Translations under genes and position numbers: made by a program
The notes under the pieces: model-generated
Told to the model about the DNA's origin: nothing
Database searches by the model: none
What the model saw: only the letters and a program-made list of their open reading frames with translations
Shown here: positions 13,423-49,512 of the stretch, in pieces
Position numbering within the stretch: the stretch's first letter is position 1
How the letters are laid out: each line of letters opens with the position of its first letter
NCBI GenBank assembly: GCA_018812825.1
Contig: JAHJCJ010000067.1
Location: 383 to 64,382, forward strand
Length of the DNA stretch: 64,000 nt
From: Candidatus Omnitrophota bacterium
GTDB taxonomy: Bacteria; Omnitrophota; Gorgyraeia; Gygaellales; Profunditerraquicolaceae
Reading direction: 5' to 3'

Positions 13423-14169
13423 ATGGCATTACGGGAAGATATTGAAAAACAAGGCAGCTGGCTTTTTAGGTGGAGAAGTTATTTACCGCTTTTAAGTATT
13501 CCGGTTTTTACTATTGCTGTAAGACAGTCTGGAATATTGGAAAATAAATTCGGGGATTCTGTAGGTGATTTTTGGGGGGTTTGTGCAATTATAATATCAT
13601 TCTTTGGGTTTGTTGTTCGTTGCGTTACTGTGGGATTTGCTCCGCGCGGCACATCAGGTAGGAATACGAAGTCGCAAGTAGCAGAGATGCTTAATACAAC
13701 TGGCATGTATTCTATTTCAAGAAACCCACTCTACCTTGGTAATTTTATTATAGTTTTAGGTATTACATTATTTATCCAGGTGTGGTGGCTAGCTTTATTA
13801 GTTTGGCTTGGATTTTGGTTTTATTATGAACGGATTATTTTCACCGAAGAAGAGTTCTTGAGAAGTAAATTTAAGGATCAATTAATGGAATGGGCTAAAA
13901 AGACACCGATTGTAATCCCACGTTTTAGAAATTGGGAGAAACCGGAGTTAGGTTTTTCATTAAAGAATGTTTTTAAGAGGGAGTTTTCTACATTTTTTTC
14001 TATTGTTGCAACTTTCTTTTTCTTGGAAATTTTAACCAATTTTTTAACCCAAAAAAGATTTGCGGTTCATAATTCTTGGTTAATATTTTTTAGCGTAAGT
14101 CTTTTTATTTATTTAACTTTCTTCATTTTGAAAAAGAAAACAAAATTACTCAATGTTGTTGATAGATAA
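13423..14169 (+). CDS. Membrane methyltransferase of the ICMT/PEMT (isoprenylcysteine carboxyl methyltransferase-like) family
   Basis: Polytopic membrane protein with an 'ISRNPLYLGNFIIVLG' motif like the RHPxY/RNPxY motif of that family. Confidence 0.5.
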   Translation: MALREDIEKQGSWLFRWRSYLPLLSIPVFTIAVRQSGILENKFGDSVGDFWGVCAIIISFFGFVVRCVTVGFAPRGTSGRNTKSQVAEMLNTTGMYSISRNPLYLGNFIIVLGITLFIQVWWLALLVWLGFWFYYERIIFTEEEFLRSKFKDQLMEWAKKTPIVIPRFRNWEKPELGFSLKNVFKREFSTFFSIVATFFFLEILTNFLTQKRFAVHNSWLIFFSVSLFIYLTFFILKKKTKLLNVVDR

Positions 14170-14361
14170 ACCAACGGTGCTTATAGTAGTTTATGGGCGA
14201 AAGATTTTCTTACGGCCCCGTCCTCTTGGTTATCTTCAACCGGCTAGCTGTAAATTAATCAAGTTTTGATATATAGCTTAAGTTTCTCTGAATAAGTCAA
14301 AGTTCTGAGATTAACATAAGGGTGAGCATATAACTGCAATGTTTACAAAAATAGGCTGATT

Positions 14362-14664
14362 ATGTTTGTGCTATCTAATTTCTTATTCGCTATTGCCAGA
14401 GCATTGGATATCCTGCTTGGTATTTTATATTGGCTTATACTTATTAGGGCCTTAATCAGTTGGGTCAATCCTGACCCATATAATCCCATTGTGCAGTTTT
14501 TATACAAAACTACAGAACCCGTACTGTATTCGATTAGGAAACTCCTGCCTTTTACCCAGAGTATAGGCATAGATATTTCGCCTATAATAGCTTTCTTGGT
14601 GATTATGTTTTTTAAATCATTCCTGGTGAGGACGCTGTTGGATTTAGCAATGAGGATACAGTAG
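14362..14664 (+). CDS. yggT: YggT-family membrane protein
   Basis: 'LIRALISWVNPDPYNPIVQFLYKTTEPVLYSIRKLLP...IDISPIIA' is the YggT/Ycf19 signature. Confidence 0.75.
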   Translation: MFVLSNFLFAIARALDILLGILYWLILIRALISWVNPDPYNPIVQFLYKTTEPVLYSIRKLLPFTQSIGIDISPIIAFLVIMFFKSFLVRTLLDLAMRIQ

Positions 14665-14987
14665 ATAAACATCTGTTTTACAAAACCGCTGTGTTTTTAA
14701 CAACAATGCCTCATGCTATAATTATAATTGATACTTGTACAGATAGCTATAGAAGCAGTAGGTAATGCCGGAATAAGCAGCAGGTTTTATGACTACGGCT
14801 GATATAAAATGCAAGCCTATCGTGGTGTTTAAGGACAATAGTCTTTGCCAATCGGCTAACCTTAATAGGCCAATTCGAGCCATGAAATAAGAAAATATCT
14901 AAAGTTACTAAATTGTTAATTCGGCGTGCTTTAATGCTTTGAAATAGGAAATAAGCGTTATATAATAACCGCAGTAATGAGGTAATA

Positions 14988-16007
14988 ATGATTAATAGAG
15001 CGGTTTTTTTAGTATCCTTGCTCACGGTTTTGGTTTTATTTGTCCGTCTGGAGGCAGAAGAAGTAGGGATGCGGGTAGGATATTTTCCCAATATAACCCA
15101 TTCACAGGCCATCGTGGGTATGGCCAATGGAAGCTTCCAGAAAGAATTGGGAAGGGATGTAAAAATAGATGTCAAGATTTTTAACGCCGGTCCGTATGTG
15201 ATTGAGGCGATGTTTGCTGGCAAGCTTGACTTGGCATATATAGGGCCTAATCCTGCGATTAATGGTTATATAAAATCTAACGGGGAGGCATTAAGAATTG
15301 TTGCCGGAGCCAGTAGCGGCGGGGCAGCTTTAGTTGTGCGTAAAGATTCCGGTATAAAAGAAGTAAAAGATCTCCATAAAAAGAGAATAGCATCCCCCCA
15401 GTTAGGCAATACACAGGATGTATCCCTAAGGGCATGGCTTAAGCATAATGATATGCTTATGACAGAAAAAGGCGGGGATGTTCAGGTGGTGCCGGTAAGC
15501 AACCCCGATCAACTTATCTTATTCCTTAATAAACAGATAGACGCTGCTTGGACAATTGAACCTTGGGTGAGCCGTTTAGTAAAAGAAGGCACTGGAGTAA
15601 TATTTCTAGAAGAAAGTTCGCTTTGGCCCAAAGGCGAATATATCACGGCAAATATAATCGTGAGGAAAGGATTTTTGGATACGCACCCCGTCCTTGTCAA
15701 AAAATGGCTTAGGACGCATGTAAACTTAACACAGTGGGTTAACGAGCATCTTAGCGAGGCAAAAATAATTATAAATAAGGAACTTAAGAGATTAACCGGC
15801 GCAGCACTTAGTGAAGATATTTTGAATTCTTCTTTTGATAGGTTAAGAGTAACTTACAATCCGCTTAAGACTTCGCTTTTTACTTCCCTGGACTGGGCAT
15901 TCGAACAGGGATTTCTCGGAGAGAATAAGACTGATATTTCCGGAATATATGACATTAGAATTTTAAATGAAATATTAAAAGAAAAAGGATTAGTTCCTCT
16001 AGATTAA
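14988..16007 (+). CDS. ABC transporter substrate-binding protein, NitT/TauT (sulfonate/taurine/nitrate) family
   Basis: Signal peptide, 'GYFPNITHSQAIVG', and 'KLDLAYIGPNPAI' typical of SsuA/TauA-like SBPs; followed by a cognate ATPase and permease. Confidence 0.7.
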   Translation: MINRAVFLVSLLTVLVLFVRLEAEEVGMRVGYFPNITHSQAIVGMANGSFQKELGRDVKIDVKIFNAGPYVIEAMFAGKLDLAYIGPNPAINGYIKSNGEALRIVAGASSGGAALVVRKDSGIKEVKDLHKKRIASPQLGNTQDVSLRAWLKHNDMLMTEKGGDVQVVPVSNPDQLILFLNKQIDAAWTIEPWVSRLVKEGTGVIFLEESSLWPKGEYITANIIVRKGFLDTHPVLVKKWLRTHVNLTQWVNEHLSEAKIIINKELKRLTGAALSEDILNSSFDRLRVTYNPLKTSLFTSLDWAFEQGFLGENKTDISGIYDIRILNEILKEKGLVPLD

Positions 16008-16008
16008 G

Positions 16009-16773
16009 ATGTCCCTGCTTAGCATCAACATAGATTCGAAAGTATATAGCGGTAGTAAAAATACTTTAAAAGTATTAGAGGATATCCATCTTGAAATTGG
16101 AGAAGGAGAGCTTGTTTGTATTGCCGGGCCATCGGGATGCGGTAAAACAACTTTTTTAAATATTCTGGCGGGTTTAGATTCTGATTACTCTGGAAGAGTC
16201 CTCTATAAAGGTGCTCCTATAATTAAATGCAGCCAGGAGCGAATGATGATATTCCAGGAGCTGGGGTTATTTCCTTGGCTTAATGTTCAGAATAATGTAG
16301 AGTTTGGTTTGAAAATGAAAGGTATCCCTAAGAAAAAAAGAGAGCAGATTGCCTTGAAATACCTCGAGATGGTCAACCTCGTTAAATTTAAGGATTATTT
16401 TATCCATAATCTATCCGGAGGAATGAAGCAAAGAGTCGCCTTAGCTAGGGCATTAGCTATGGAGCCCCAGGTGCTTTTGATGGATGAGCCATTTGCTTCT
16501 TTGGATGCGCAGACAAGGGATATGTTACATCTTGAACTGCAAAAAATATGGATTGCTACCAAGAAAACAATAATCTTCGTTACCCATAATGTAAGAGAAG
16601 CAGTCTGTCTAGGTGATAGGGTGTTAGTTTTCTCGTTAGCGCCTGCACACGTAAAGGCGAGTTTTAAAATCGACCTTGCGCGCCCGCGGCAGATTGAAAG
16701 CGAAGGACTGATAGAAAAGGTCAGGCCCATACTTACTGAATTAAAATTTGAGATCGAAAGGGATTATGAATAA
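16009..16773 (+). CDS. ABC transporter ATP-binding protein (SsuB/TauB-like)
   Basis: Walker A 'GPSGCGKTT', signature 'LSGGMKQRVALARALA', Walker B 'LLMDEPFASLD'. Confidence 0.85.
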   Translation: MSLLSINIDSKVYSGSKNTLKVLEDIHLEIGEGELVCIAGPSGCGKTTFLNILAGLDSDYSGRVLYKGAPIIKCSQERMMIFQELGLFPWLNVQNNVEFGLKMKGIPKKKREQIALKYLEMVNLVKFKDYFIHNLSGGMKQRVALARALAMEPQVLLMDEPFASLDAQTRDMLHLELQKIWIATKKTIIFVTHNVREAVCLGDRVLVFSLAPAHVKASFKIDLARPRQIESEGLIEKVRPILTELKFEIERDYE

Positions 16774-17548
16774 TAGATTCTTGCAGTTAATGTTCAAACA
16801 GGTTATATTTTACTCGGCATTATTATTATTATGGCATTTTTTATTTTCCATAAAGATTTGGCCGGCGTATCTTTTCCCCTCTCCCTTAAAGGTATTAAAA
16901 GCAATTATTGAGGGATTTAGAAGCCATATTTTTATTATCGCCATATTGGTTAGTTTACGCAGGGCCTTGATTGGGTTCGGAATCTCTATTTTATGTGGAG
17001 CTGTTTTTGGTATTTTGATGAAAAAATTTAAAATCATTGATGATACATTCGGAAAACTGGTAATGGGCATTCAAGCATTGCCGAGCATCAGCTGGTTTCC
17101 GCTTGCGATTTTATGGTTTGGGTTAACCGAAACAACCATTATTTTTATTGCCGTTATGGGCTCGTTATTTTCTATTACTATGTCGGTATATTCCGGTTTA
17201 AAACACATCCCCAAGATTTACATTCAGACAGCAAGGAATATGGGTGCGCGTAGAATGAAAATGCTATGGTGGGTATTAATTCCTGCGGCAGCGCCGTCAT
17301 TGATCGTAGGGTTAAAGCAGGGATGGTCTTTTGCCTGGAGATCTCTTGTGGCAGGCGAACTTCTATTTGTAAGCCTTGGTTTGGGTTATCTTCTAATGAT
17401 GGGCAGAGAATTAAACGATATGAGCCAGATTATCGCCGCAATATTTATTATTATTTTAATAAGCGTTGCAGTAGATAGGTTCGTATTCGGAATTATGGAA
17501 GCAAGGCTTAAGAAAAGATGGGGTCTTGAAGGGGCAGAAGCCCTTTAA
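16748..17548 (+). CDS. ABC transporter permease (SsuC/TauC-like)
   Basis: Six TM segments and the conserved loop 'ARNMGARRMKMLWWVLIPAAAPS'. Confidence 0.8.
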   Translation: MRSKGIMNNRFLQLMFKQVIFYSALLLLWHFLFSIKIWPAYLFPSPLKVLKAIIEGFRSHIFIIAILVSLRRALIGFGISILCGAVFGILMKKFKIIDDTFGKLVMGIQALPSISWFPLAILWFGLTETTIIFIAVMGSLFSITMSVYSGLKHIPKIYIQTARNMGARRMKMLWWVLIPAAAPSLIVGLKQGWSFAWRSLVAGELLFVSLGLGYLLMMGRELNDMSQIIAAIFIIILISVAVDRFVFGIMEARLKKRWGLEGAEAL

Positions 17549-17690
17549 TGACTTGTTACCCTATTTATATCTTCGCAGCTAAAAATCTTGCTTTTCAATA
17601 CAGGGATGGATAATGGTCGTCTAAATATCCCGTCCGGGTGACCCCCCTGGGCTTTAGTCCGGGTGGTTGTATTTCTAATTTTATATATAA

Positions 17691-18716
17691 ATGGAACCAA
17701 TTTTTATCATAGGCACAGAACGTTCCGGTACAAACTTACTCAGGGTCATTCTTAATTCTCACTCTAATATCGCCATTCCACATCCCCCGCACATAATGAA
17801 GAATTTTTTTAAGCTAGAGCCGCTCTATTTTAATTTGAGCAGGGATATTAATTTTCAGAGGCTCATTAATGATGTGGTCAAAATGGTTGAACTTCATTTT
17901 TATCCTTGGGAGATTAAAATTGATAAAGATAGAATATTCCGAGAGGTAAAAGGAAGGAACTTAATTAGTATCTTCTTTAGCATTTACGACCAATACCTGG
18001 AGAGCACAAAGAAGAAGAGATGGGGCTGTAAAAGTACCTTTATGATTTATCATGTTGCTTTAATCAGGCAATATTACCCCTTAGCTAAATTTATTTACAT
18101 GGTGCGCGATGGAAGAGACGTCGCTGTATCTGGCAAGAAAACCATCTTTAATCATTATTCTGTTTATTATACGGCGCTATTATGGAAGAAGGAGCAGGAG
18201 ATCGGGATTTTTTGGCTGGGCAAGCTCCCGAAAGACAGGATCCTTTTAATTAAATATGAAGATCTTTTGAGTGAGCCGGATAAAATGGCTAGGATAGCCT
18301 GTTCTTTTTTAGATGAACCATACCAGGAGAATATGCTCAATTATTTTAGTACCAATGAAGCTAAAAAAAGCGCAAGCCTAAGCGCAGCCTGGAAAAATAC
18401 CTCTGCCTCAATAATAATAGACAATTTTGGGAAATTTAAAACTGAATTAAAAAAGAAAGAAATTGATTTATTCGAAGCCGTGTCCGGCCAAGAACTGGAT
18501 TATTTTTCGTATAAACTATCAAAAGATTTTTCTCTTTCAGAGGGTGCCCGGGCAAAGAGGATAAAGTTCAGGTTCGCTTATTTAATTGAGGAGTTATTTT
18601 TAATGATTAAAGTGCAATTACAATCTTTCTTTACAGATAAAAACATCTTCTTAAGGCTTAAGAAATTTTGGTTTTTAAAACTCATTAAAATCTTAAGGTA
18701 TTTTCAATGGAATTAG
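17691..18716 (+). CDS. Cytoplasmic PAPS-dependent sulfotransferase
   Basis: 5'-PSB-like 'FIIGTERSGTNLL' and 3'-PB-like 'YMVRDGRDVAVSG' motifs of the sulfotransferase fold; no signal peptide. Confidence 0.7.
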   Translation: MEPIFIIGTERSGTNLLRVILNSHSNIAIPHPPHIMKNFFKLEPLYFNLSRDINFQRLINDVVKMVELHFYPWEIKIDKDRIFREVKGRNLISIFFSIYDQYLESTKKKRWGCKSTFMIYHVALIRQYYPLAKFIYMVRDGRDVAVSGKKTIFNHYSVYYTALLWKKEQEIGIFWLGKLPKDRILLIKYEDLLSEPDKMARIACSFLDEPYQENMLNYFSTNEAKKSASLSAAWKNTSASIIIDNFGKFKTELKKKEIDLFEAVSGQELDYFSYKLSKDFSLSEGARAKRIKFRFAYLIEELFLMIKVQLQSFFTDKNIFLRLKKFWFLKLIKILRYFQWN

Positions 18717-20113
18717 ATTGCAAATTACAGTCTGCCTATATTGACCGAGTTAATGATTTTAGAAATCATGTTTTCGAGGAAATAAATAAAAAAGATCAAT
18801 ATCGCCTTTGGTCTGTCAAAACCCTGCGTAATGTAAAGGAGGCTATTGTTATCAGCTCTGCTTCTAGGTCAGGCTCGAGCCTCTTATTTTCATTACTAAA
18901 GAAGGTTCCTCAGCTTTACTCTTTAAGCGGGGAGAGTGTGCCTTTTTATAAATTAAACGGCCTATCTTCGGATATCTTTCCTTCAGATGAGATCCCTAAG
19001 GAAGTTATGGAAAAAAGAAAATATACCTTTGGTCTTTCCCGTGATTTTTTAAGTGATTTTTCTTCAGGTGGTGACCCCGGAGATATCTTCAGGGATAGAA
19101 AACTGTTTAGCCAGTATATCGAAGATCTTACATTGAGATTTCCATTACAATGGCCCCAGGTAAACTTTTCCTTCGGGTTTTTAAAAAAATCAATAATGCG
19201 AGCATTTGATATCTATGCGAACAACCATCAAATATTTTGCAAAGAAACATTTTATCTTGAGCTGCTTTCGCAGTTGCGGAGGGAATATAAAACCATAAAT
19301 CCTTATTATTATGATATTCCCGTCACGTTGGTTAAGAGGAAATTTCCCGGGTTAAAAATTCCATTAGCCCCACCGAGCCGCATCCTGACAATTGAAGAGC
19401 CACCCTTTATTTTATTATCACCTTGCAGAAAAATCGATGAGATGGACCTTTTAGGAAAGTCTCTGCTTTTGAAATCTTCGGCAGATTGCTATCGAATGGG
19501 TTTTATCAAAGCACTCTTGCCCAATGCCAGGATTAAGATAATTTATTTGACCAGGAATCCCGCTGCTTCGATTAATGGTTTATATGACGGCTGGCTTCAT
19601 AGGGGATTTTTTTCTCATAATTTGAAATGTTCCTTGGCTAATGCGAATAATTCCTTGTCAAAGAGCCTGAATATACGCGGATATTCAGGCCGGCATGAAT
19701 GGGGGAGATGGTGGTGGAAATATGATTTGCCTTTTGGATGGCTAGATTACACGCAAAGCCCGCTTGAAGAAGTATGCGCCTTTCAATGGGTTTCCGCAAA
19801 CAGGGCACTGCAGGAATATTTGAATAAAAGTAAAAAACAATATTTACAGGTTAAGCATGAAAACATCATTAAAAACTTAGAATCACGAAAGAAAGAGATA
19901 AATAAAATCCTGAGTTTTATCGGTATTCGCCGAAGCGCGGTAAATCAATTGAATTTAAGCAGATTGCCTGTTATCCAGGCCACAAGCGCGCCTAAGGCCT
20001 ATAGATGGAAAAAAAGAATAAACATACTTGCTCCGCTTATCAGTAATCCTGTAATAGCCAATATGAGTTTTCAGCTGGGATATAAAAGAGATAGAATCGA
20101 GGAGTGGTTATGA
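18707..20113 (+). CDS. Second sulfotransferase-family protein (divergent)
   Basis: 'VISSASRSGSSLLFSLLKK' P-loop-like PAPS-binding motif and 'IIYLTRNPAASINGLYDGW' 3'-PB-like motif; its start overlaps the stop of the previous gene. Confidence 0.5.
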   Translation: MELDCKLQSAYIDRVNDFRNHVFEEINKKDQYRLWSVKTLRNVKEAIVISSASRSGSSLLFSLLKKVPQLYSLSGESVPFYKLNGLSSDIFPSDEIPKEVMEKRKYTFGLSRDFLSDFSSGGDPGDIFRDRKLFSQYIEDLTLRFPLQWPQVNFSFGFLKKSIMRAFDIYANNHQIFCKETFYLELLSQLRREYKTINPYYYDIPVTLVKRKFPGLKIPLAPPSRILTIEEPPFILLSPCRKIDEMDLLGKSLLLKSSADCYRMGFIKALLPNARIKIIYLTRNPAASINGLYDGWLHRGFFSHNLKCSLANANNSLSKSLNIRGYSGRHEWGRWWWKYDLPFGWLDYTQSPLEEVCAFQWVSANRALQEYLNKSKKQYLQVKHENIIKNLESRKKEINKILSFIGIRRSAVNQLNLSRLPVIQATSAPKAYRWKKRINILAPLISNPVIANMSFQLGYKRDRIEEWL

Positions 20114-21039
20114 TGTTTGCGCATACTATCGGTTCGGAATATAAGCCATTAAAGGCAGTATTGCTCTATAAACCTGGCCCTTTTATTGAGAATATTGATA
20201 TTCCTCGGGAGGTTCTGCATCTGGGAAGTATTAGTTATTCGGTTTTAACAAGAGAATATGCAGAGATGGTCAATGCCTATAAGAAGCTCAAGATAAAGAC
20301 TTATTTTATAAATGCTGATAAAATAAGTAATGATGATAACCACGGTTTGTTTAATCTTATGTTCATAAGGGACCTTTTTCTTATGACTCCTTCTGGGGCA
20401 ATTATTTCTAGAATGTTTTCAAAAGTTAGGCGAGCGGAAGAGGGGTACGCAAAAATGACCCTAAGCGGTATGGGTGTGCGAATAAGGAGAATTGTTCGGG
20501 CTGGCGCAACATTTGAAGGAGCTGATGCTTTATGGCTTCGTGATAGATTGATGATGGTGGGGGTGGGTAAACGAACAAATATTAATGGTTTTCGTGAGAT
20601 CAAGGAAGAGTTAAAGAAAGATAACATTGAATGTTTAAGCTTTCCTGCTCCGCAGGCTACGCTTCATCTTCTGGGTGCGTTGCAATTTGTTGATTCGGCG
20701 CTTGCCCTGGTTAGGGTGGATCTAGTGGATGTAGGTATTTTAAATTTCTTGAAACAAAATAAAATAAAAATAATAAGTATACCCGAAAATGCAGAAGTAA
20801 GGAAAAAGCAGGCAATGAATTTTGTAGTAATAGCTCCGAGGAAAATAGTTATGCCGGCGGATTGCCCCAAAACACGCAGAATATATGAACGTTTTGGTAT
20901 TAAAATTGCCGCTGAAGTTAAAATCACTCAACTTGTTAACGGCGGCGGTGGCCTTGCCTGTGCAACTGGTATTTTGACGAGGAAGCCAGAGGCAACGCAT
21001 TCCTGGCACCCAAACATCAATAATAAAATTAGTAAATAA
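20104..21039 (+). CDS. Amidinotransferase/DDAH/arginine-deiminase-superfamily enzyme (guanidino-group modifying)
   Basis: C-terminal 'NGGGGLACATGILTRKP' with a catalytic-Cys context typical of the amidinotransferase superfamily; ~310 aa. Confidence 0.55.
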   Translation: MVMMFAHTIGSEYKPLKAVLLYKPGPFIENIDIPREVLHLGSISYSVLTREYAEMVNAYKKLKIKTYFINADKISNDDNHGLFNLMFIRDLFLMTPSGAIISRMFSKVRRAEEGYAKMTLSGMGVRIRRIVRAGATFEGADALWLRDRLMMVGVGKRTNINGFREIKEELKKDNIECLSFPAPQATLHLLGALQFVDSALALVRVDLVDVGILNFLKQNKIKIISIPENAEVRKKQAMNFVVIAPRKIVMPADCPKTRRIYERFGIKIAAEVKITQLVNGGGGLACATGILTRKPEATHSWHPNINNKISK

Positions 21040-21116
21040 CCTAAATATATGATAAAATATTTTCAAATTGCCCCTTCGGTTTATTAATCCCTATTCTTTA
21101 AGATTCAAAGGAGGAG

Positions 21117-22043
21117 ATGGGTATGTATAATGGCCACAAAAGATATGCCTTATTTATCGGCAGATGGCAACCGTTTCATAATGGGCATAAATATTTGATC
21201 GATGAGGCATTGTCAAAGGGTGAAAATGTTTGCATAGCGATAAGGGATACAGAAAACTCAGCCAAGAATCCTTATACCGCTGAACAAAGAGTCGAAATGA
21301 TTAAAAGAGTTTACGGAGACAGGGTGGAAGTAGCTATTATGCCTGATATCAAGAGTATAAATATAGGCAGAAATGTGGGTTACGAGGTTAATATCGTTGA
21401 ACCCCCCGCTAACGTAGGGAGTATTTCCGGAACAAACGTACGTGCGGGCAAAGATGATAATGTCCCTGTGGAAGTGGCAGAGTATATAAAATTATTGCGC
21501 ACCACTTTGTGGCTTACAGGAATTCCCTGCTCAGGGAAGACCACCTTATCTAAGAGACTGAAAGAGGAATTAGATAATCGCGGATTTAAGGCAGTCCATC
21601 TGGACGCAGATGATTTGCGGAATAAATTGAATGTGGATTTGGGATTTTCTGCTGAAGACAGGAGAGAAAATTTACGGCGCGTAGCCCATGTAGCTAAGTT
21701 ATTCAACGATAATGGCAATTTTGTAATTGCTAGTTTTGTTTCTCCGACTGATGAATACCGCAATATGGTAAAGGAAATTATCGGTAATTTTAAATTGGCT
21801 TATCTGAAATGCAGCCTTAAGATCTGTGAAGGAAGAGACGTTAAGGGAATGTATAAAAAGGCTAGAAGCGGCGAGATTAAAGAATTTACAGGCGTCTCTG
21901 CGGTTTTCGAAGAACCATCTAATGCCGACATTATCGTTGACACCGAGAATTACGGGATAGAGGAATGTGTAAATGGAATATTGAATAGGATCGGTGTTCA
22001 GTCGGTGACAAAGCATAATTTGCATTTGTGTAGCAAAAAATAA
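21117..22043 (+). CDS. cysC: Fusion: NadM-like HIGH-motif nucleotidyltransferase domain (N) + adenylylsulfate (APS) kinase domain (C)
   Basis: N-terminal 'YALFIGRWQPFHNGHKYLIDEAL' (cytidylyl/adenylyltransferase HxGH fold, archaeal NMNAT-like); C-terminal 'LWLTGIPCSGKTTLSKRL...HLDADDLRNKLNVDLGFSAEDRRENLRRVAHVAKLF' (APS kinase P-loop and 'DGD..R..L..DLGFS..DR.EN.RR' motif). Confidence 0.75.
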   Translation: MGMYNGHKRYALFIGRWQPFHNGHKYLIDEALSKGENVCIAIRDTENSAKNPYTAEQRVEMIKRVYGDRVEVAIMPDIKSINIGRNVGYEVNIVEPPANVGSISGTNVRAGKDDNVPVEVAEYIKLLRTTLWLTGIPCSGKTTLSKRLKEELDNRGFKAVHLDADDLRNKLNVDLGFSAEDRRENLRRVAHVAKLFNDNGNFVIASFVSPTDEYRNMVKEIIGNFKLAYLKCSLKICEGRDVKGMYKKARSGEIKEFTGVSAVFEEPSNADIIVDTENYGIEECVNGILNRIGVQSVTKHNLHLCSKK

Positions 22044-22047
22044 CATA

Positions 22048-22821
22048 ATGGGTTGTGAAAATATAAACAAGGTATTGAGCCCGGAGCATAAACTTAAAAA
22101 ACAGTTTGATTTGCGTTGTGCTGAATTCGATCTCTCTGCTAACTGGATTACGAATAAAGAACTTATCCGTAGCCACATAGATTTAGCAGGTCCGTCTTGC
22201 GGCAGGGCATTAGACTTGTGCTGTGGTACTGGTCAAATTGGCCGCGCTTTAAAAAGTCAGGGTTGGGATGTTTACGGCTTGGATATTTCTGATGGCATGG
22301 CCAGGATGTCGTCGCGGTATTTCCCGGTCTCAAAATGCGCAGCCGAAAGAATGCCTTTTTCCTCCCATTATTTTCATCTGGTAGTGTGTCGTCAGACATT
22401 TCAATTTTTAAATGCCCAAAAAGTTTTATCTGAGGTGGCAAGGGTTTTAGCTCCTCAGGGGGTTTTTATTTTAAGCCTTACTGTACCGTTTTCCGATAAG
22501 GATTATGACTGGCTATATAAGATTCACCGGGTAAAACAGCCTTTGCTTTTAAAGTTTTACACGGCCCTGAATTTGATGGATGAATTGCGAAGAAAAAATT
22601 TCTTAATCGAAGAAACAAGGATTCTAAAAGTACGAGAATCAGTTACGCGTTGGATGCAGCATGCCCCGGAGTTGAATCACAAAATACGGGATAAAGTCAT
22701 CTTAATGGTAAAAAACGCGCCCGCAGATTACAAAAAGATTCATAATGTAGAAATAACGGGTAAAGAAGTGTTGGAAGACTGGAATTGGGTTATTTTTAAA
22801 GCAAGTTTTCGTAAAAACTAA
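22048..22821 (+). CDS. Class I SAM-dependent methyltransferase (copy 1)
   Basis: Motif I 'ALDLCCGTGQIGRAL' and 'VVCRQTFQFL...RVLAPQGVF'; paralog of the ORF at 24254. Confidence 0.8.
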   Translation: MGCENINKVLSPEHKLKKQFDLRCAEFDLSANWITNKELIRSHIDLAGPSCGRALDLCCGTGQIGRALKSQGWDVYGLDISDGMARMSSRYFPVSKCAAERMPFSSHYFHLVVCRQTFQFLNAQKVLSEVARVLAPQGVFILSLTVPFSDKDYDWLYKIHRVKQPLLLKFYTALNLMDELRRKNFLIEETRILKVRESVTRWMQHAPELNHKIRDKVILMVKNAPADYKKIHNVEITGKEVLEDWNWVIFKASFRKN

Positions 22822-22851
22822 GGTTTATACGTAGGTTACTAGAAAACATAT

Positions 22852-24297
22852 ATGGATAAATTGCCCGGATGCCACTATAATTATTCTCCTGAAGTAGACC
22901 CCCAAGAGGATGTTCTGCGAAAAATAGCTTATTCAAAATATCCGCGTAGGAACACCGGAAGAGTTGTTCTTATTGTGCCTCCTTCCCCGCAGATTCCCAC
23001 GCCAGGCAGGGAGTTTTTAGTAACAGGCCCTTTCGAAGGCTTTACTTGCGTAGCAACTTTAATTAAAAAAATGGGGTATGCATTAACGATCATTGATTGT
23101 CGCCTGAAAGAAGGCATTGATAGGCTTGTATTGGATGGCATAAAAGATGCAGAGATTATCGGGATAGCCACCTATTGTGATTCTTTTATTTTTCTGCGGG
23201 AAATTACCCAATTGATAAAAGAGGTTTCTCCAAAAAAACCGATATTTTTGGGTGGTCCCCTTGTTACTTCTTTACCCGAGATTGTGCTTAAAAATACTGC
23301 TGCTGACTATGCAATTTTGGGAGAAGGAGAGCTTACAATTATTGAATTTCTTGATATGTACTTCAGTAAGAGGAAAACCGACTTTACGAATATAAAGGGA
23401 ATGGCTTATAAGGATAGTAAGGGCCGGATAATAATTAATCCAAAGAGGGCACAGATTAAAAATCTCGATAATCTGCCTTTTTTGGATTATTCTATTTGGT
23501 CCAATTATGAAAGTATTGTTAGGAATGGCCAAATATTGCTCTCATCAATGAGAGGTTGTCCCCAAGAATGCTCCTTTTGTTTTAAAACCATTCCTGCCCT
23601 TAGATTAAAAAGTCTTGGAAGGTTTGAAGAAGAAGTAGCCTATCTTAAGCAGGCGACAAGATTTGACTATGCTTGGTTGAATGATTTGACGTTTAATGTT
23701 ATTGAAGAGAGGGCGATCAAGGTATGCAGAATTTTAAAAACATATGATGTCAAGTATCATTGTTTTGCGCGTGTGCAAAAAGTAAGTGCGGCATTGGTAA
23801 AGACATTGGAAGAAACAGGATGCTTGGGGGTATGGTTTGGCATAGAGTCTTATGACCAGAAAATCCTTGATGAGAACAGAAAGAATGTCAGCATTGAAGA
23901 AATAAATAAGGCTGTTAAAATTGCTCAAGAGGCTGGGCTGGCCGTAAGAGGGCTTTTTATTGTCGGTTTGTATGGAGAAACAGAGGGTTCTTTAAAAAAG
24001 ATGCTGGATTTTATTACAGAGAGCAGATTCTTGCCTTTAGTCAAATATCTTGTTCCCTTTCCGGGAACAAGTTTATACCAATATGCAGTCCACTCCGGAA
24101 AAATAAAAGACACCATTGAATTTCTGGAGATGCTTTCTAGAAGAAAAGTAAGCGATTATGATGATGAGATAATTAACCTTACGGGCTTAAAGGAAGAAAC
24201 CCTGAGATATTATTTTCATCGAATATGGAAAATAACTAAGGAAAGAGAGGATTGTGTTGATTACCAGTGTACTCTTAGCACGCGTAAGCCCGGTTAA
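22852..24297 (+). CDS. B12-binding radical SAM enzyme (copy 1)
   Basis: N-terminal B12-binding-like domain then the CxxxCxxC cluster 'MRGCPQECSFC'; ~480 aa, typical of class B radical SAM enzymes. Confidence 0.8.
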   Translation: MDKLPGCHYNYSPEVDPQEDVLRKIAYSKYPRRNTGRVVLIVPPSPQIPTPGREFLVTGPFEGFTCVATLIKKMGYALTIIDCRLKEGIDRLVLDGIKDAEIIGIATYCDSFIFLREITQLIKEVSPKKPIFLGGPLVTSLPEIVLKNTAADYAILGEGELTIIEFLDMYFSKRKTDFTNIKGMAYKDSKGRIIINPKRAQIKNLDNLPFLDYSIWSNYESIVRNGQILLSSMRGCPQECSFCFKTIPALRLKSLGRFEEEVAYLKQATRFDYAWLNDLTFNVIEERAIKVCRILKTYDVKYHCFARVQKVSAALVKTLEETGCLGVWFGIESYDQKILDENRKNVSIEEINKAVKIAQEAGLAVRGLFIVGLYGETEGSLKKMLDFITESRFLPLVKYLVPFPGTSLYQYAVHSGKIKDTIEFLEMLSRRKVSDYDDEIINLTGLKEETLRYYFHRIWKITKEREDCVDYQCTLSTRKPG

Positions 24298-25030
24298 CCA
24301 TTTCCAAAAAAGGGCAGAGAAGTATGATTGCTCATCTGAATGGGTGCATGATCCAGTTCTCATTAATAAGATAAAAGATCTGGTTGGGGCAGGTCCTGAT
24401 GAGTATCTGCTTGATATAGGTGTGGGAACAGGAAAAATCAGCCGTGCGTTCAAAGGAGAGGTTAGCTGTCTTTTTGGAGTGGACATATGTATGGGGATGG
24501 TTAAGCAGGCCAGGTTGTTTACCGACAAAATTATATTATCTTATGCAGAAAAATTGCCGTTTAAGGATAATATCTTTGATGTTTGTGTTTGCCGGCAGGC
24601 ATTACAGTTTATGAGACTTGAAGAGGTATGTTCTGAAATGCACAGGGTTTTAAAACCTGGCGGCCGTTTGGTATTGTGTCATTTAACCGCATATGGCGAG
24701 GGAGACAAAAAAGAAACCTTTTTAATTCAGAAGTTGCGTAATCCTGCACGTAAGAATTTTTTCTTACCGGGAGATTTTCCTGAGATGCTCAAGAAATATA
24801 AGTTTTCCGATCTAAAATCTTTCGCATACATTACAAGAGAGTCGGTTAATCAATGGATTAACCATGGCGCCATCTGTGAAGATGATAGAGTAAAGATCAG
24901 GGAAGCTTATAGAAAGGCATCGGGTGATTTCAAAAGAATACATAAGATACAATTCAGTGATACGGACATTTTTGACTCAATGAAGATGGTTCTTGTAAGG
25001 GCTATAAAGAAAAAAAGCCGGTTAGATTGA
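24254..25030 (+). CDS. Class I SAM-dependent methyltransferase (copy 2)
   Basis: Motif I 'LLDIGVGTGKISRAF', 'VCVCRQALQFM...RVLKPGGRL'; clearly paralogous to 22048; exact start uncertain (the track start is a TTG overlapping the upstream gene). Confidence 0.75.
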   Translation: MLITSVLLARVSPVNHFQKRAEKYDCSSEWVHDPVLINKIKDLVGAGPDEYLLDIGVGTGKISRAFKGEVSCLFGVDICMGMVKQARLFTDKIILSYAEKLPFKDNIFDVCVCRQALQFMRLEEVCSEMHRVLKPGGRLVLCHLTAYGEGDKKETFLIQKLRNPARKNFFLPGDFPEMLKKYKFSDLKSFAYITRESVNQWINHGAICEDDRVKIREAYRKASGDFKRIHKIQFSDTDIFDSMKMVLVRAIKKKSRLD

Positions 25031-25060
25031 ATAAGGCAATAGAGAGCACTATCCAAGTAT

Positions 25061-26497
25061 ATGAATAATATAACCCTGGTTAATATTACCATTGCCAAGA
25101 ATTTTAATGAAAAGGTGGTTTATAAGCATAATTCAGTGGGGATTTTCTTACTTATCGCCGTACTGGAGAGGTCAGGTTATAAGGTAAGTTTTTATGAATA
25201 TTGCATGGAGTATAAAAGAAAACTTACTGAGGAAATCAATGAATTTATTAATACCATAGATACGGTACCTCCCATGGTAGGTATCGGGTGTCATTCTGTG
25301 CATCTTCCCTTTGTGGTTAAGGCCGCAGAAGAGCTCAAAAAAAGATTCCCCGGTAAAGTTATCATCTTGGGAGGCGCAGGCCCGTCAGCTGTAGCAGAAG
25401 ATTTGTTGAAAAAATTCGATTTTATAGACGCAGTCGTAGTCGGCGAGGGTGAAGAAACTATCGTTGAAATTGCAAAGAAAGGTTTAAGTGAGTTTAGGGA
25501 GATAAAAGGCATAGTTTACAGGGAAGCTGATAAGGTGCATGTAAATAGCCCACGGCCGCATATAGATGAATTGGACAAGCTTCCGCTCCCGGCGTATCAT
25601 GCCGTAAACTTTAAAGAACAATACCAAATCGCAACTGTGATTACTTCTCGCGGTTGTCCTTTTCATTGCAAGTTCTGCAGTTTGACGGATTTTGACGGGA
25701 AAAAGGTCCGCTATAATTCCATTGATAATGTAATTCATGAATTAAGAATTCTATCTGTTGAGTATGGTTTTAAAGATTTATTTTTTGTTGACCCTACATT
25801 TACGGTTAATAAAAAACGGACGATAGAGTTATGCCGCAGGATCCGGGAAGAAAATTTAGGCTTGAGTTGGTTTTGTATGACGCGCGTGGAGTGTATGGAT
25901 GAAGAATTATTGGAGGAGATGGGGAGAAGCGGGTGCAAAACTATTTTTTATGGCTTAGATACAGGTAGTGAAGAGGTGCTTAAGAAAATTAAAAGAGGTT
26001 TTGGCATAAAAGATGCCCTGAATATTATTGAGAAATCTGTACGATATATTAATATGGTTGAAATAGGCCTTATGTGGGGCTTCCCTTTTGAATCGCTTAA
26101 TGATTTCAAAGAAACTTTAAGGATCCGTACATATCTTGAGGAGGAGTTGGGTTGTAACGTACAATTGCGCTGGTTAGAGCCGTATCCAGCGACATCGCTT
26201 TTTCAAGAGTATAAAAAAGATTTATTCCTGCCTAAAAGCCAAAGTCTTATGTTCCAGCCGGAAACAATAGAAAAACTTATCATTTCAGGAAAGAATTTTT
26301 ACCGCGCCTCCGGGGATACATGTCGCATACCTGCCGATGTAACCAGTATACGTTTCATCATAGCCGCCTCCCATACCGCAAATATATGCCGTGATATTAT
26401 TGAAGAAAACCCATATCTTTTTAGCGACTTTTACCGTTACAAAACCTTCGATTTAGAAGAAAAACTTAAGCTCGCCAGCCGTTACAGTATTTATTAA
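25061..26497 (+). CDS. B12-binding radical SAM enzyme (copy 2)
   Basis: 'TSRGCPFHCKFCS' CxxxCxxC motif with a preceding B12-binding-type domain ('VIILGGAGPSA'); paralog of 22852. Confidence 0.8.
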   Translation: MNNITLVNITIAKNFNEKVVYKHNSVGIFLLIAVLERSGYKVSFYEYCMEYKRKLTEEINEFINTIDTVPPMVGIGCHSVHLPFVVKAAEELKKRFPGKVIILGGAGPSAVAEDLLKKFDFIDAVVVGEGEETIVEIAKKGLSEFREIKGIVYREADKVHVNSPRPHIDELDKLPLPAYHAVNFKEQYQIATVITSRGCPFHCKFCSLTDFDGKKVRYNSIDNVIHELRILSVEYGFKDLFFVDPTFTVNKKRTIELCRRIREENLGLSWFCMTRVECMDEELLEEMGRSGCKTIFYGLDTGSEEVLKKIKRGFGIKDALNIIEKSVRYINMVEIGLMWGFPFESLNDFKETLRIRTYLEEELGCNVQLRWLEPYPATSLFQEYKKDLFLPKSQSLMFQPETIEKLIISGKNFYRASGDTCRIPADVTSIRFIIAASHTANICRDIIEENPYLFSDFYRYKTFDLEEKLKLASRYSIY

Positions 26498-26712: not shown

Positions 26713-27639
26713 ATGGGCAATGAGGATATCTATAAATTAGTTGCAAACATAGAAAAAGTTATTGTAGGCAAAACCGAAACAGTAAAAATGCTGGTTATAG
26801 GGTTATTGACTAATGGCCATATTTTGATAGAAGATATCCCCGGCATGGGAAAGACAATGCTTGCATTAACGTTAGCTAAATCTATAAGTGGAGAGTTTAA
26901 GAGGATACAGGCTACTCCGGATTTGCTACCCACAGATATTACTGGTGGGTTTGTTTATAGCCCCAAGACAGGAGAGTTTGATTTTAAAAAAGGTCCGGTG
27001 TTTACGCATATCCTTCTGGTTGACGAAATTAACAGGACTACGCCGCGTACGCAATCTGCTCTTCTTGAGTGTATGCAGGAGTATAAAGTTACCGTTGAAG
27101 GAATGACATTTGCCTTGCCAAATCCTTTTATGACCGTTGCTACACAGAATCCTATTGAATATCAGGGGACATACGCTTTACCTGAAGCCCAAATAGATAG
27201 GTTTTTGATGAAAATCAACATAGGGTATCCGTCTCTGGTAGAAGAAATAAAGGTTATTTCTGAACAAAAGATTAAACATCCAGTAGAAAGCGTTATGCCG
27301 GTTATGACTCTCGAGGATGTTGTGAAGCTTCAGGAACAGGTAAAAAAAGTTCAAGTTTCTTCAGAGGTATTGGAATACATCGTTAAATTGGTATCCTCAA
27401 CCCGCAAGTCAGATGTAGTAAAACAGGGCGCAAGCCCGCGTGCATCGATTGCCATCATGAAAGCAAGCTGTGCCTGGGCATTCATCGAGGGTAGGGATTA
27501 TGTTATACCCGATGATGTTATTAAGCTCCTGCCACGTGTCTTGAAGCATAGGATCGTATTGCATCCAAAGGCCATGATTTCCGGAATGACGCCTGAATTG
27601 GTTGTAGAAGGCATATTGAAACAAATCCCAATTTCCTGA
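26713..27639 (+). CDS. MoxR-family AAA+ ATPase
   Basis: Walker A 'GMGKTM', Walker B 'LLVDEINRTTPRTQSALLECMQE', and the 'VTVEG..F.LP.PF.V.ATQNP' signature of MoxR/RavA. Confidence 0.85.
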   Translation: MGNEDIYKLVANIEKVIVGKTETVKMLVIGLLTNGHILIEDIPGMGKTMLALTLAKSISGEFKRIQATPDLLPTDITGGFVYSPKTGEFDFKKGPVFTHILLVDEINRTTPRTQSALLECMQEYKVTVEGMTFALPNPFMTVATQNPIEYQGTYALPEAQIDRFLMKINIGYPSLVEEIKVISEQKIKHPVESVMPVMTLEDVVKLQEQVKKVQVSSEVLEYIVKLVSSTRKSDVVKQGASPRASIAIMKASCAWAFIEGRDYVIPDDVIKLLPRVLKHRIVLHPKAMISGMTPELVVEGILKQIPIS

Positions 27640-27646
27640 TTTAAGC

Positions 27647-28873
27647 ATGTATAAGAAATTTCTGGGAAAGTGGATTCTTTTCCTCGTTCTTCTGGGCTTT
27701 AGCCTTTTTATGAGCCTGAAGACCGCCTTTATTATTTTCTATTTTTTCTTCTGGATCCTCCTATCTATTTTAACAGTAAGTTTTTTATGGCTGGTTTTGG
27801 TATATTTTTGCAAAAGGATATACTTGGAACGAAAAATAACACTTAAAATAGAAGAGGACGATATTCTAGAGATAACTTTAGAGATAAAGAATAAAAGTTT
27901 CTTGCCTATTTTTGATGTTGTATTGAAAGATTATTTAAGTTGTACGTATGCGCAAGAAAGGCAAAAGTTTATTATGCTGGATTTATTAATGCCTAATTCA
28001 GCGATTAAGCTTGTATACCATTGCCTTTGCCCTCAGAGGGGTAGGTATGAAATAGGCCCGTTGGTTGCTTATTTTTTTGACCCGCTGGGCCTGTTTTATT
28101 TTAAACAAGTATTTTCGGTGTATTCGGAAGTTTATGTTTATCCACGGACATTTAATATCCGTAAGTTCCCAGCTCTAAACAAAGGCACGTCTCCGTGGCT
28201 TGGCGTTGAAACATCGCGCGTAAGCGGCGATGATGACGAGTTTTATGGAGTGCGGGAATATAAAAGTGGGGACCCGTTAAAAAAGATACATTGGATGGTT
28301 TCTGCGCGTAAAAACCAGCTGATTGTAAAGGAATTTCAGCGCCAGAGTTTTTTTAGAGCGACCATCCTGTTTAATTTAGAGAAGGAAGATAATTCGGGAG
28401 AAGGTAAAGAGTCTGTTGCAGAGTATACCATAAAGATTGTAGCTTCGATTGCCAAATATCTTATTAATTTAGGCGTATCTGTTGAGGTTATTTCTCACGC
28501 AGGGGAAGTGGTGCACATTCCTTTTAACAAAGGGGCAGATCATCTAGAAGAAATCCTTAAATTTCTGACTATTGCGCAAGCAGAGAGCAGGATAACATTG
28601 TCCGAGCTTTTTGCCACCTTCCAGCGCAATATTTTAGAGGATTCAAGTTTAATTGTCGTAATGACGGACAAGAATAAAGCATTTTTGCCGGCGATGTTCT
28701 CCTTGGGGGTTAGAAACGTATCCCTGGTGCCCATATTTCTGGAATCTTCGACGTTTCTTAAAGATGATCCCGGTAAAAAAGATACTAAGGGCTATGGTAT
28801 TGATATATCTGAAAATATAAGCCTTAATCCTATTTATATTGCGTGTAAAGATAATTTAGAAGAAAAATTCTAG
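27647..28873 (+). CDS. DUF58-domain (vWA-like) membrane protein, MoxR partner
   Basis: N-terminal TM helices and 'FYGVREYKSGDPLKKIHWMVSARKNQLIVKEFQ' typical of DUF58 proteins encoded next to MoxR. Confidence 0.7.
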   Translation: MYKKFLGKWILFLVLLGFSLFMSLKTAFIIFYFFFWILLSILTVSFLWLVLVYFCKRIYLERKITLKIEEDDILEITLEIKNKSFLPIFDVVLKDYLSCTYAQERQKFIMLDLLMPNSAIKLVYHCLCPQRGRYEIGPLVAYFFDPLGLFYFKQVFSVYSEVYVYPRTFNIRKFPALNKGTSPWLGVETSRVSGDDDEFYGVREYKSGDPLKKIHWMVSARKNQLIVKEFQRQSFFRATILFNLEKEDNSGEGKESVAEYTIKIVASIAKYLINLGVSVEVISHAGEVVHIPFNKGADHLEEILKFLTIAQAESRITLSELFATFQRNILEDSSLIVVMTDKNKAFLPAMFSLGVRNVSLVPIFLESSTFLKDDPGKKDTKGYGIDISENISLNPIYIACKDNLEEKF

Positions 28874-28881
28874 TGTAGGCT

Positions 28882-31581: not shown

Positions 31582-31586
31582 GCAAA

Positions 31587-33746: not shown

Positions 33747-34235
33747 ATATACAATAGATGTTTTTTAATTTACTACTGTTTAAAATGAAGAGAATCATAG
33801 CAATAGTTTTTTTCTGCCCCCAGGGATGTTTTTGGCAAATGTGTTTTGTTTCCGGTAGCCGTATGGCGTTTATAGCTACGGATTTTTCTGCGAAGAAGGA
33901 AGTTGCTGGGCTGAACTATGGGGTTGATCTACCAGGTTCTTGTTTTGCTATATTTCTGACCGGTATTTTCTTGATCCATATCCTTGGAATAGCTTGAAGT
34001 TGTTTTGTAGCTACGGCTATAAATTTTTCTGTTTTAATAGTATTAAGTTTGAGTGGAAACAGGTTCTAACCTCTTGATATTTTATTTATATAATGTATAA
34101 TTACCTTGCCTATGATTTTAAGGTGTGGCTATAATTTATATCGATAAGCATAGTTTATGTTTTTACGGCAAACAACGTGGTCTCTAAAGTATTGCGGACA
34201 AGTTTTATTCCGAGGGCTCTATTTGATAAGTTTAT

Positions 34236-34316
34236 GCGCGGGTGGTGAAATGGCAGACACGCAAGCATGAGGGGCTTGTGCCGAAAGGCTTGGGGGTTCA
34301 ACTCCCCCCTCGCGCA
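34236..34316 (+). tRNA. tRNA-Leu (anticodon GAG), long variable arm, no encoded CCA
   Basis: Manual fold: acceptor GCGCGGG/CTCGCGC, D stem GTG/CAC, anticodon stem CAAGC/GCTTG with loop ATGAGGG, 13-nt variable arm, T arm GGGGG-TTCAACT-CCCCC. Confidence 0.75.
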
Positions 34317-34501
34317 TTAAATTATCAGGTTGGCTCTAAATAAAATCCTACCTGTAGAGTTTTTCCTGCCTTTTGAGCCCTGTGTAATATTAATTTGTAC
34401 TATAGAGGTTTTTAAGGTTTTAATTACCAGCGCTTTCTTAGCTTTAGGGGTTATTTTTTATCAGGCTAGGTTGTTTATCGAGGAAAGTTGTAATCTGATT
34501 T

Positions 34502-47911: not shown

Positions 47912-47921
47912 AAGGAGAAAA

Positions 47922-49511: not shown

Positions 49512-49512
49512 A

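Follow-up and report, generated by a model that had tools for sequence, protein, structure and literature searches.

Candidatus Omnitrophota contig JAHJCJ010000067.1 (GCA_018812825.1) carries a gene in which a small nucleotidyltransferase (NTase) domain, here called the mini-domain, precedes an adenosine 5'-phosphosulfate (APS) kinase on the same chain. The gene lies on the forward strand at positions 21117-22043 of the 64,000-nucleotide stretch that was analyzed (the window), and forms one unbroken open reading frame (ORF) of 308 amino acids counted from the first ATG. Its features are given below; the family alignment (A1) and the 240 loci named there are described in the following sections.

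21110..21116, + strand: Shine-Dalgarno-like GGAGGAG (GGAGGA at 21110-21115), read directly from the sequence
21117..22043, + strand: whole mini-domain-APS kinase fusion ORF, with the stop codon at 22041-22043
21141..21497, + strand: mini HIGH-nucleotidyltransferase domain, residues ~9-127 (PF01467, AF2 model, Foldseek, alignment A1)
21159..21188, + strand: GRWQPFHNGH, the HxGH nucleotide-binding motif (R16, Q18, H21, H24), invariant in A1 and present in 239-240 of 240 loci
21237..21248, + strand: AIRD motif after strand 2 (R43, D44), from alignment to MJ0541 and Mth NMNAT; R43 in 240 of 240 loci
21342..21383, + strand: PDIxSxNxGRxVGY loop, P76-Y89, from profile alignment of A1 to 1f9a; G84, R85, G88, and Y89 in 240 of 240 loci
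21423..21443, + strand: ISGTNVR (ISxTxxR), second ATP-binding motif, aligned to SGTEIRR of NMNAT; S104 and R109 invariant in A1
21501..21989, + strand: APS kinase (CysC) domain, residues 129-291 (TIGR00455, PF01583)
21519..21545, + strand: P-loop GIPCSGKTT of the APS kinase, read from the sequence, directly after the last NTase helix

A preliminary description of this DNA had proposed a two-domain fusion in one ORF, and the single frame together with the Pfam and NCBIfam domain matches agrees with this. The peptide FIGRWQPFHNGHKYL quoted there corresponds to residues 13-27 of the fusion protein. The GGAGGA box lies 1 nt before the ATG at 21117 and 7-8 nt before a second ATG at 21123, and most homologues of the fusion are 306 amino acids long with MYNGHKRY as their first residues. 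Because the Shine-Dalgarno spacing suits the second ATG and the homologues are mostly of this length, the true start is probably 21123, giving a protein of 306 amino acids.

A full-length homologue search of 5.8 billion proteins, clustered at 90% identity, returned more than 120 clusters that share 70-91% identity over the full length and come from many independent contigs. They all have the same two Pfam domains, belong almost exclusively to Candidatus Omnitrophota, and are annotated just as "adenylyl-sulfate kinase". Since the same frame is found in all these clusters and the neighborhood is conserved on long contigs, the fusion is a conserved gene and not a sequencing or assembly artefact. 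The preliminary description had named separate ORFs as the outcome that would overturn its reading; two ORFs joined by misassembly are ruled out by the recurrence of the frame on independent contigs, and the same fusion, which was to be sought in other genomes, was found there in these Omnitrophota-dominated clusters.

The C-terminal half matches APS_kinase (PF01583) over residues 129-275 with an E value of 1.3e-53, and the equivalog-domain model TIGR00455 (apsK) gives 193.5 bits against a cutoff of 138.7. The motifs GxPxSGKT, LDxD..R, NxDLGFS, DRxENxRR, SFxSP, and KGxYKKAR are invariant across 44 fusions, the forms listed for the fusion family being LDADD-R, NxDLGFS, DRxENxRR, SFVSP, and KGMYKKAR. 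It is thus well supported by sequence that this half is a true CysC with intact APS- and ATP-binding motifs. There is no linker at the junction in the full-length AF2 model (pTM 0.77), where helix 118-127 runs into kinase strand 130-135. The Sat-CysC model NF004040 gives 151.6 bits against a cutoff of 669 with the full-length protein, and this score comes entirely from the kinase half.

The N-terminal mini-domain

CTP_transf_like (PF01467) matches the mini-domain with an E value of 7e-13 in the full protein and 6e-11 when residues 1-130 are searched alone. In Pfam at E<=10, residues 1-130 match only PF01467 and its relatives, and the ATP sulfurylase family PF01747 is not matched; the Sat family is also absent from the NCBIfam matches of the domain. 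The best NCBIfam matches are archaeal/NadM-type nicotinamide mononucleotide (NMN) adenylyltransferases (NMNAT), namely NF002243 with 51-54 bits against a cutoff of 127, and TIGR01527 with 45-48 bits against 181, and standalone members of the mini-domain family likewise score below the NMNAT cutoffs. The nearest solved structures by sequence in the PDB are also NadM/archaeal NMNATs, with an alignment limited to residues 11-67. The AF2 model of the domain, built on 84 family members, has a pLDDT of 91.4 and a pTM of 0.84. When this model was compared with the PDB by Foldseek, NMNAT ranked first (1m8g, 1ej2, 1f9a; TMq ~0.72; 23-25% identity) and phosphopantetheine adenylyltransferase (PPAT) next, while the viral structures of BFVD gave weak, generic "cytidyltransferase-like" matches only.

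The mini-domain has about 115-130 residues, compared with about 350 residues in Sat (PUA-like plus catalytic domain). Among the Sat active-site motifs, PxHxxH alone is shared, within GRWQPFHNGH, and GRDHAG is not present in the domain. The architecture of CysD/CysN is also different, as the modeled fold is that of a HIGH nucleotidyltransferase and not a PP-loop protein with a GTPase. These results confirm that the domain is not a canonical ATP sulfurylase and that its nearest relatives are NadM/archaeal NMNAT and PPAT. The preliminary description had likened it to archaeal NMNAT or small cytidylyltransferases instead of the ~350-residue Sat, and this holds in Pfam, NCBIfam, the PDB, and Foldseek. 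The profile-HMM search and structure prediction that it had suggested gave NMNAT and then PPAT as the nearest fold, without Sat, and the full-length alignment to canonical ATP sulfurylase that it had named as contrary evidence was not obtained in Pfam at E<=10.

The nucleotide-binding motifs of NMNAT are present in the mini-domain, including HxGH (H21-H24), SxTxxR (I103-R109), and the Rossmann-like fold. NadM/archaeal NMNAT (1f9a MJ0541, 1ej2, 2qjt; TIGR01527, NF002243) is the best sequence and fold match, sharing GRxQPFHxGH, the NPxTxxER helix start, and SGTxxR, but the mini-domain has neither a Nudix partner nor an NAD context, and its partner is an APS-consuming enzyme. The positions invariant in A1 are L12, I14, G15, R16, W17, Q18, P19, H21, G23, H24, R43, R85, V87, G88, S104, and R109. 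The A1 profile aligns with MJ0541 (1f9a) in two blocks, one pairing positions 9-76 with residues 5-76 and the other pairing positions 85-130 with residues 110-153, and an 8-residue S-x-N-x-G-R-x-V loop takes the place of about 33 NMNAT residues (MJ0541 ~77-109). The mini-domain is thus short of about 25-33 residues of the NMNAT middle segment. The (A/V)IRD motif sits where NadM/archaeal NMNAT has GSAQ, and is a candidate contact for the acceptor, possibly sulfate. The family-specific arginines R43 and R85 are carried by the loops that follow strands 2 and 3, and the NMNAT loops at those places, including MJ0541 ~77-109, form the acceptor (NMN) site. A trimmed, arginine-lined acceptor pocket of this kind would fit a small anion. 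Regardless of which gene is the partner, 239-240 of the 240 loci keep the residues R16, H21, H24, R43, R85, and R109, and all the features proposed for the mini-domain family (GRWQPxHxGH, (A/V)(I/V)RD, PDIxSxNxGRxVGY, ISxTxxR, a core of ~105-115 residues, and an APS-related partner) are found in the window protein.

Since PPAT is the second-closest fold, and since the family occurs in genomes of the Candidate Phyla Radiation (CPR), DPANN, and Omnitrophota, the pair might be the counterpart, in reduced genomes, of the final two steps of CoA synthesis, with a PPAT-like and a dephospho-CoA-kinase-like half; an NTase followed by a 3'-kinase would parallel the eukaryotic CoA synthase. However, the PPAT (CoaD) model TIGR01510 gives 27.6-29.7 bits against a cutoff of 103.3, the kinase is specific for APS by a curated model, and the family lies in the context of glycan clusters and of genes for sulfotransferases, CysQ, and APS reductase rather than of CoA genes. 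We consider this explanation extremely improbable.

Genomic partners of the mini-domain family

When 1.84 billion cluster representatives were scanned by HMMER with the N-terminal domain alone, 2120 relatives were obtained, 399 of them at E<1e-10. Among the best 150 of these relatives, about 80 also have an APS kinase domain, in the orders NTase-APSK and APSK-NTase, and the remainder are standalone proteins of 100-160 amino acids. For the standalone members that were individually examined, the next gene codes for a separate APS kinase, and the stop codon of one gene frequently overlaps the start codon of the other; these members lie beside sulfotransferases or within glycan-biosynthesis clusters. 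Flanks of up to 8 kb were analyzed for 160 loci, consisting of 80 from GTDB species genomes (at least 204 relatives) and 80 from IMG/VR viral contigs (at least 585); 80 metagenomic loci were added to give 240. The genomic members belong to Omnitrophota, Planctomycetota-labeled metagenome-assembled genomes (MAGs), Saccharibacteria, WWE3, Nomurabacteria, Bacteroidota, Acidobacteriota, Nitrospiraceae, Marinimicrobia, and a few archaeal-labeled MAGs. The complete Pyrinomonadaceae chromosome OZ243957.1 is among the sequences that carry the mini-domain.

An APS kinase was present in 134 of the 160 loci (84%). In 53 of them it is fused to the mini-domain, in 70 it lies on the same strand no more than 300 bp away, and in 11 it occurs at another place in the flanks; the proportion was about 85% over the 240 loci. 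It was not found in the flanks of the other 26 loci, several of which end at a contig edge. In addition, 52 of the 160 loci have a detectable sulfotransferase, its median distance being ~1 kb, and 10 have a CysQ-like motif of 3'-phosphoadenosine 5'-phosphate (PAP) phosphatase (Pfam-confirmed for one). The fusion, which had been called unusual in the preliminary description, is unusual relative to curated knowledge, but not in nature, where the pairing is widespread across phyla and viruses.

The best genome match of the N-terminal domain is an Omnitrophota MAG with 94% identity. Several members from other lineages are also close to the window protein. The fusion was found in a Woesearchaeota-labeled MAG with archaeal-looking neighbors (JAHWIT010000026.1, loci L005 and L033) and in a Methanosarcinales-labeled MAG with a CysQ-like gene directly downstream (CAYVYK010000001.1, locus L041), both 68-74% identical to the window protein, and several Planctomycetia- and Scalindua-labeled MAGs have N-terminal domains with 70-83% identity. 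These occurrences reflect either horizontal transfer or mis-binning. A DUF2061 membrane segment is often N-terminal on marine and viral APS kinases, and sometimes there is a C-terminal HAD-like domain (examples at L167 5996-7165, L176 4895-6008, and L178 5270-6001).

Four Nitrospiraceae species genomes have a different arrangement, in which a sulfite reductase (NIR_SIR fused to TusA) and a CysH-family reductase precede the mini-domain, with no adjoining APS kinase. A standalone Nitrospiraceae member has 168 residues. This CysH has the CC...CxxC cysteine pairs and ECGLH. It passes the model of thioredoxin-dependent APS reductase (TIGR02055, 273 bits against 235), and fails that of 3'-phosphoadenosine 5'-phosphosulfate (PAPS) reductase (TIGR02057, 169 against 254). 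A metagenome scan with the Nitrospiraceae protein returned 515 relatives, of which the best 80 (69-100% identical) were examined. The APS kinase is immediately upstream in 68 of these and fused in 2, the 4 closest relatives have cysH and sir instead, and the other 6 have less than 800 bp of upstream sequence. The CysH-linked mini-domain proteins are 70-87% identical to the kinase-linked ones. ECGLH matches in L049 and L135 were also noted, and were rejected as spurious: one is the C-terminal helix of the mini-domain itself, and the other belongs to an epimerase.

The feature common to APS kinase and APS reductase as partners is the consumption of APS, and nothing else. An APS-reductase pathway needs ATP sulfurylase and not APS kinase, which suggests that the mini-domain fills that slot of the operon. 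In canonical operons, ATP sulfurylase usually adjoins cysC or cysH. Signatures of Sat (QxRNPxHxxH, GRDHAG) and CysN and a CysD homologue were found neither in the ORFs of the 240 loci nor in six-frame translations of the window; CysD was checked by motifs and by a CysD sequence that served as a homology probe alone. Pfam likewise detected no ATP-sulfurylase, PAPS_reduct, or CysN domain in essentially all window ORFs of at least 200 amino acids and several shorter ones. These results suggest that, within the loci and the window searched, the mini-domain takes the place of the canonical sulfurylase beside cysC or cysH.

The same evidence bears on another explanation, in which the mini-domain tunes the APS kinase, either as a module for regulation or scaffolding or as a housekeeping NMNAT, with APS supplied by Sat or CysDN from elsewhere. 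The searches covered the loci and the window, which leaves the rest of the host genomes as a place for such genes; the closest solved relatives are NMNATs, and JGI names some members NMNAT. A precedent for regulation is the APS kinase of Entamoeba histolytica, which bears a full-size ATP-sulfurylase-like domain; this domain is catalytically dead and no longer binds substrate, but interacts with the kinase and tunes it (PMC13213808). The window protein likewise combines an APS kinase with a domain of the NTase superfamily, but the mini-domain is small, belongs to a separate family, and has intact catalytic motifs; the near-universal retention of HxGH, ISxTxxR, and the extra invariant arginines is unlike a dead domain. 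In Nitrospiraceae, moreover, it stands in a sir-cysH operon without a kinase to regulate. A role as NMNAT is opposed by the scores far below the NMNAT cutoffs, by the deletion of the NMNAT middle segment, and by the neighborhoods, where NAD-salvage genes do not recur. Taken together, a regulatory or NMNAT role seems unlikely to us.

A possible role in sulfate activation

Since the consumption of APS is what its partners share, the synthesis of APS from ATP and sulfate is the most likely role of the mini-domain. Canonical ATP sulfurylase is itself a member of the HxxH nucleotidyltransferase superfamily, and sulfurylase chemistry is therefore within reach of the mini-domain fold. The window protein would then be a compact bifunctional PAPS synthase with a non-canonical first enzyme, a minimal ATP sulfurylase, that provides PAPS for the adjacent sulfotransferases. 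We regard this as likely, although well short of certain. The preliminary description had left two options, a minimal sulfate adenylyltransferase or nucleotidylation of another pathway intermediate; comparative genomics favors the first, through the APS kinase in both domain orders and the APS reductase of Nitrospiraceae, and the function itself stays a prediction from sequence and gene context.

In the proposed mechanism, the N-terminal domain would bind ATP through HxGH (H21, H24) and ISGTNVR (S104, R109), and sulfate would be held by R43 (AIRD), R85 (GRxVGY), and possibly R16, in the pocket equivalent to the NMN site of NMNAT. Sulfate would attack the alpha-phosphate of ATP to give APS and pyrophosphate, so that the domain would adenylylate sulfate. 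The APS kinase would then phosphorylate the 3'-OH of APS to give PAPS, pulling the unfavorable first step forward, and the linker-free fusion would keep both active sites on one polypeptide. Finally, the two upstream sulfotransferases may use the PAPS within the conserved Omnitrophota cluster.

The proposed reaction, sulfate + 2 ATP -> PAPS, is the same as that of bifunctional Sat-CysC (NF004040), CysN-CysC, and the metazoan PAPS synthase, and both the canonical PAPS synthases and the mini-domain family have the APS kinase on the same chain, with both domain orders found in nature. The difference lies in the first domain, which is a ~350-residue Sat (QxRNPxHxxH, GRD) or CysD/CysN in the canonical systems and an NMNAT/PPAT-like domain of ~115 residues here. 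To our knowledge, just two kinds of ATP sulfurylase, Sat and CysDN, are recognized. No model in NCBIfam, Pfam, or PHROG names the mini-domain beyond cytidyltransferase, kinase, or NMNAT, and its database labels are "cytidyltransferase-like", "NMN adenylyltransferase", and "FAD synthase". In the full text of open-access papers, neither a description of the mini-domain as an ATP sulfurylase nor one of the fusion was found. We lean, with considerable reservation, towards the view that the mini-domain represents a third class of ATP sulfurylase, a ~110-residue HIGH-nucleotidyltransferase of the NMNAT/PPAT lineage, unrelated in sequence to Sat and CysDN, that feeds APS kinase or APS reductase. The reaction and the pathway are known, and what appears to be new is the non-orthologous minimal enzyme family and the fusion architecture.

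Several observations weigh against the assignment as a sulfurylase. The N-terminal domain has no sequence similarity to Sat that is detectable in Pfam at E<=10, ATP sulfurylase is not among the top 50 Foldseek PDB matches of its model, and the role of R43 and R85 as sulfate binders is a conjecture. If canonical sat or cysDN genes were always present elsewhere in the host genomes, the mini-domain would be redundant. Some copies also have no APS-consuming neighbor. One in Nanoarchaeota follows PolD, those of Marinoscillum adjoin TerB, and in a viral clade (L123, L126-L129) the gene immediately before the mini-domain codes for a UvdE endonuclease, and an APS kinase is absent from the surrounding 8 kb. 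The cultured Salvovirus/Sano-like phages form a distant branch with a marginal kinase (32 bits as APS kinase) adjoining a NADAR gene, and with the signature changes D44T, S80G, N82Y, and S104R. In Xylella phage Bacata (LR743524.1; L173 6142-7318), for example, a 246-amino-acid kinase-mini-domain fusion of ~36% identity adjoins a COG3236/NADAR gene. This branch may be functionally different, as NADAR hints at NAD or ADP-ribose chemistry, and these phages were left out of the core argument.

Two further observations were made on the viral members. The UvdE clade has a carbamoyltransferase and a 2-oxoglutarate-Fe(II) oxygenase nearby, and contigs of the L104 type have a 143-amino-acid P-loop kinase with a weak APS_kinase match directly upstream of the mini-domain.

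The logic of an NTase followed by a 3'-kinase would suit any two-step pathway of this type, and the mini-domain might nucleotidylate an acceptor other than sulfate, the CysC-like domain then 3'-phosphorylating the product to give a different, PAPS-like donor. Such pairs exist. In CoA synthase (PPAT-DPCK, where DPCK is dephospho-CoA kinase) and in C. jejuni Cj1416/Cj1415, an NTase makes an NMP-X anhydride (NMP, nucleoside monophosphate) and a P-loop kinase phosphorylates the ribose 3'-OH; in the Campylobacter O-methyl phosphoramidate (MeOPN) pathway, a CysC homologue phosphorylates cytidine diphosphoramidate. The Omnitrophota cluster contains enzymes of unassigned substrate (an ADI-fold protein, B12-radical SAM proteins, and methyltransferases), and some members of the family have no sulfotransferase neighbors. 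The acceptors in the two known pairs are phosphopantetheine and phosphoglutamine, neither pair is known to be linked to sulfotransferases or APS reductase, and the Campylobacter NTase has a different fold. Against another acceptor, the kinase of the window protein passes the equivalog-domain model of APS kinase with its APS-contact motifs invariant, the recurrent neighbors are PAPS-type sulfotransferases and CysQ, and the CysH-linked members have both an APS reductase and a sulfite reductase beside them, a setting in which APS itself is required. Another acceptor thus appears quite improbable, and sulfate remains the acceptor that we favor for the mini-domain.

The Omnitrophota cluster, the window, and wider meaning

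The genes around the fusion in the window are co-directional, tightly packed, and partly overlapping. Those nearest to it are as follows.

17691..18716, + strand: sulfotransferase, 341 amino acids (Sulfotransfer_3 E 8.5e-31, Sulfotransfer_1 E 8e-15)
18707..20113, + strand: sulfotransferase-like protein, 468 amino acids (weak Sulfotransfer_3 and Sulfotransfer_1 matches)
20104..21039, + strand: amidinotransferase/arginine deiminase (ADI)/dimethylarginine dimethylaminohydrolase (DDAH)-fold protein, 311 amino acids (PF02274, PF19420), conserved cluster member
22048-22821, + strand: methyltransferase (Pfam)
22852-24297, + strand: B12-radical SAM protein (Pfam)
24254-25030, + strand: second downstream methyltransferase (Pfam)
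25061-26497, + strand: second downstream B12-radical SAM protein (Pfam)

On long Omnitrophota contigs, the order is PEMT, two sulfotransferases, ADI-fold protein, fusion, methyltransferase, two B12-radical SAM proteins, methyltransferase, ABC ATPase, and CobW. The adjacent sulfotransferases mentioned in the preliminary description could be recovered, with the strong Sulfotransfer_3 match for the first and a weaker match for the second. The first is kept upstream of the fusion in Omnitrophota and is presumably the PAPS consumer. The second overlaps each neighbor by 10 bases, is kept in 12 Omnitrophota-type loci (cluster 20), and has no match in NCBIfam. The ADI-fold protein misses the cutoffs for arginine deiminase and DDAH by a wide margin. 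The downstream genes, which code for class-I methyltransferases and B12-binding radical SAM proteins, keep their order in the loci L001-L004. The product of the cluster may be a sulfated and methylated compound, perhaps a lipid or a guanidino compound.

The conserved cluster spans positions 13423-26497 of the window, including a PEMT-like methyltransferase, and is also found in L001-L004; L003 has in addition UbiA, sulfatase, phosphodiesterase, and PMT_2 genes upstream. An NMT1/SsuA-type ABC transporter (binding protein, ATPase, and permease) lies directly upstream of the sulfotransferases in the window at 14988-17548, and is not conserved at that position in other Omnitrophota loci. A promoter and terminator scan of the window from 13 to 27 kb gave no difference from shuffled sequence, and was uninformative on operon boundaries. 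Directly downstream of the cluster, positions 26713-33746 code for a MoxR AAA ATPase, a DUF58 protein, a TgpA_N-like protein of 899 amino acids, and a Big_2 protein of 719 amino acids, in a Bat/MoxR-type arrangement. In a Tad/Flp-type pilus cluster at 47000-62981, two fusions are unusual: a 719-amino-acid protein at 49513-51672 joins a ParA/MinD-like part to a T2SSE ATPase, and a secretin at 47922-49511 carries a TonB_C domain at its C terminus. At the gathering threshold of Rfam, nothing was found in the window beyond three tRNA genes:

4205-4278: tRNA-Gln(CTG)
34235-34317: tRNA-Leu(GAG)
38203-38280: tRNA-Glu(CTC)

Pathway reconstructions without Sat or CysDN label sulfate assimilation or PAPS-dependent sulfation as "incomplete". 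If the mini-domain is a third class of ATP sulfurylase, its fusions would be PAPS synthases of ~300 residues, the smallest known, and their presence in Omnitrophota, CPR, Bacteroidota, Acidobacteriota, Nitrospiraceae, and marine viruses would mean that sulfate activation is systematically under-annotated in metagenomes. Pathway gaps would be closed in Omnitrophota, in small genomes of the CPR/DPANN type, in marine Bacteroidota, in Nitrospiraceae, and in phages, and viruses would be able to encode a PAPS source for glycan sulfation that is complete in itself. A single-chain PAPS synthase of this size would also be available for biotechnological sulfation cascades. It would further imply that a new substrate specificity evolved through a trimmed acceptor pocket in an NMNAT-like fold. 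For the Omnitrophota themselves, the sulfated product of the conserved cluster would become approachable.

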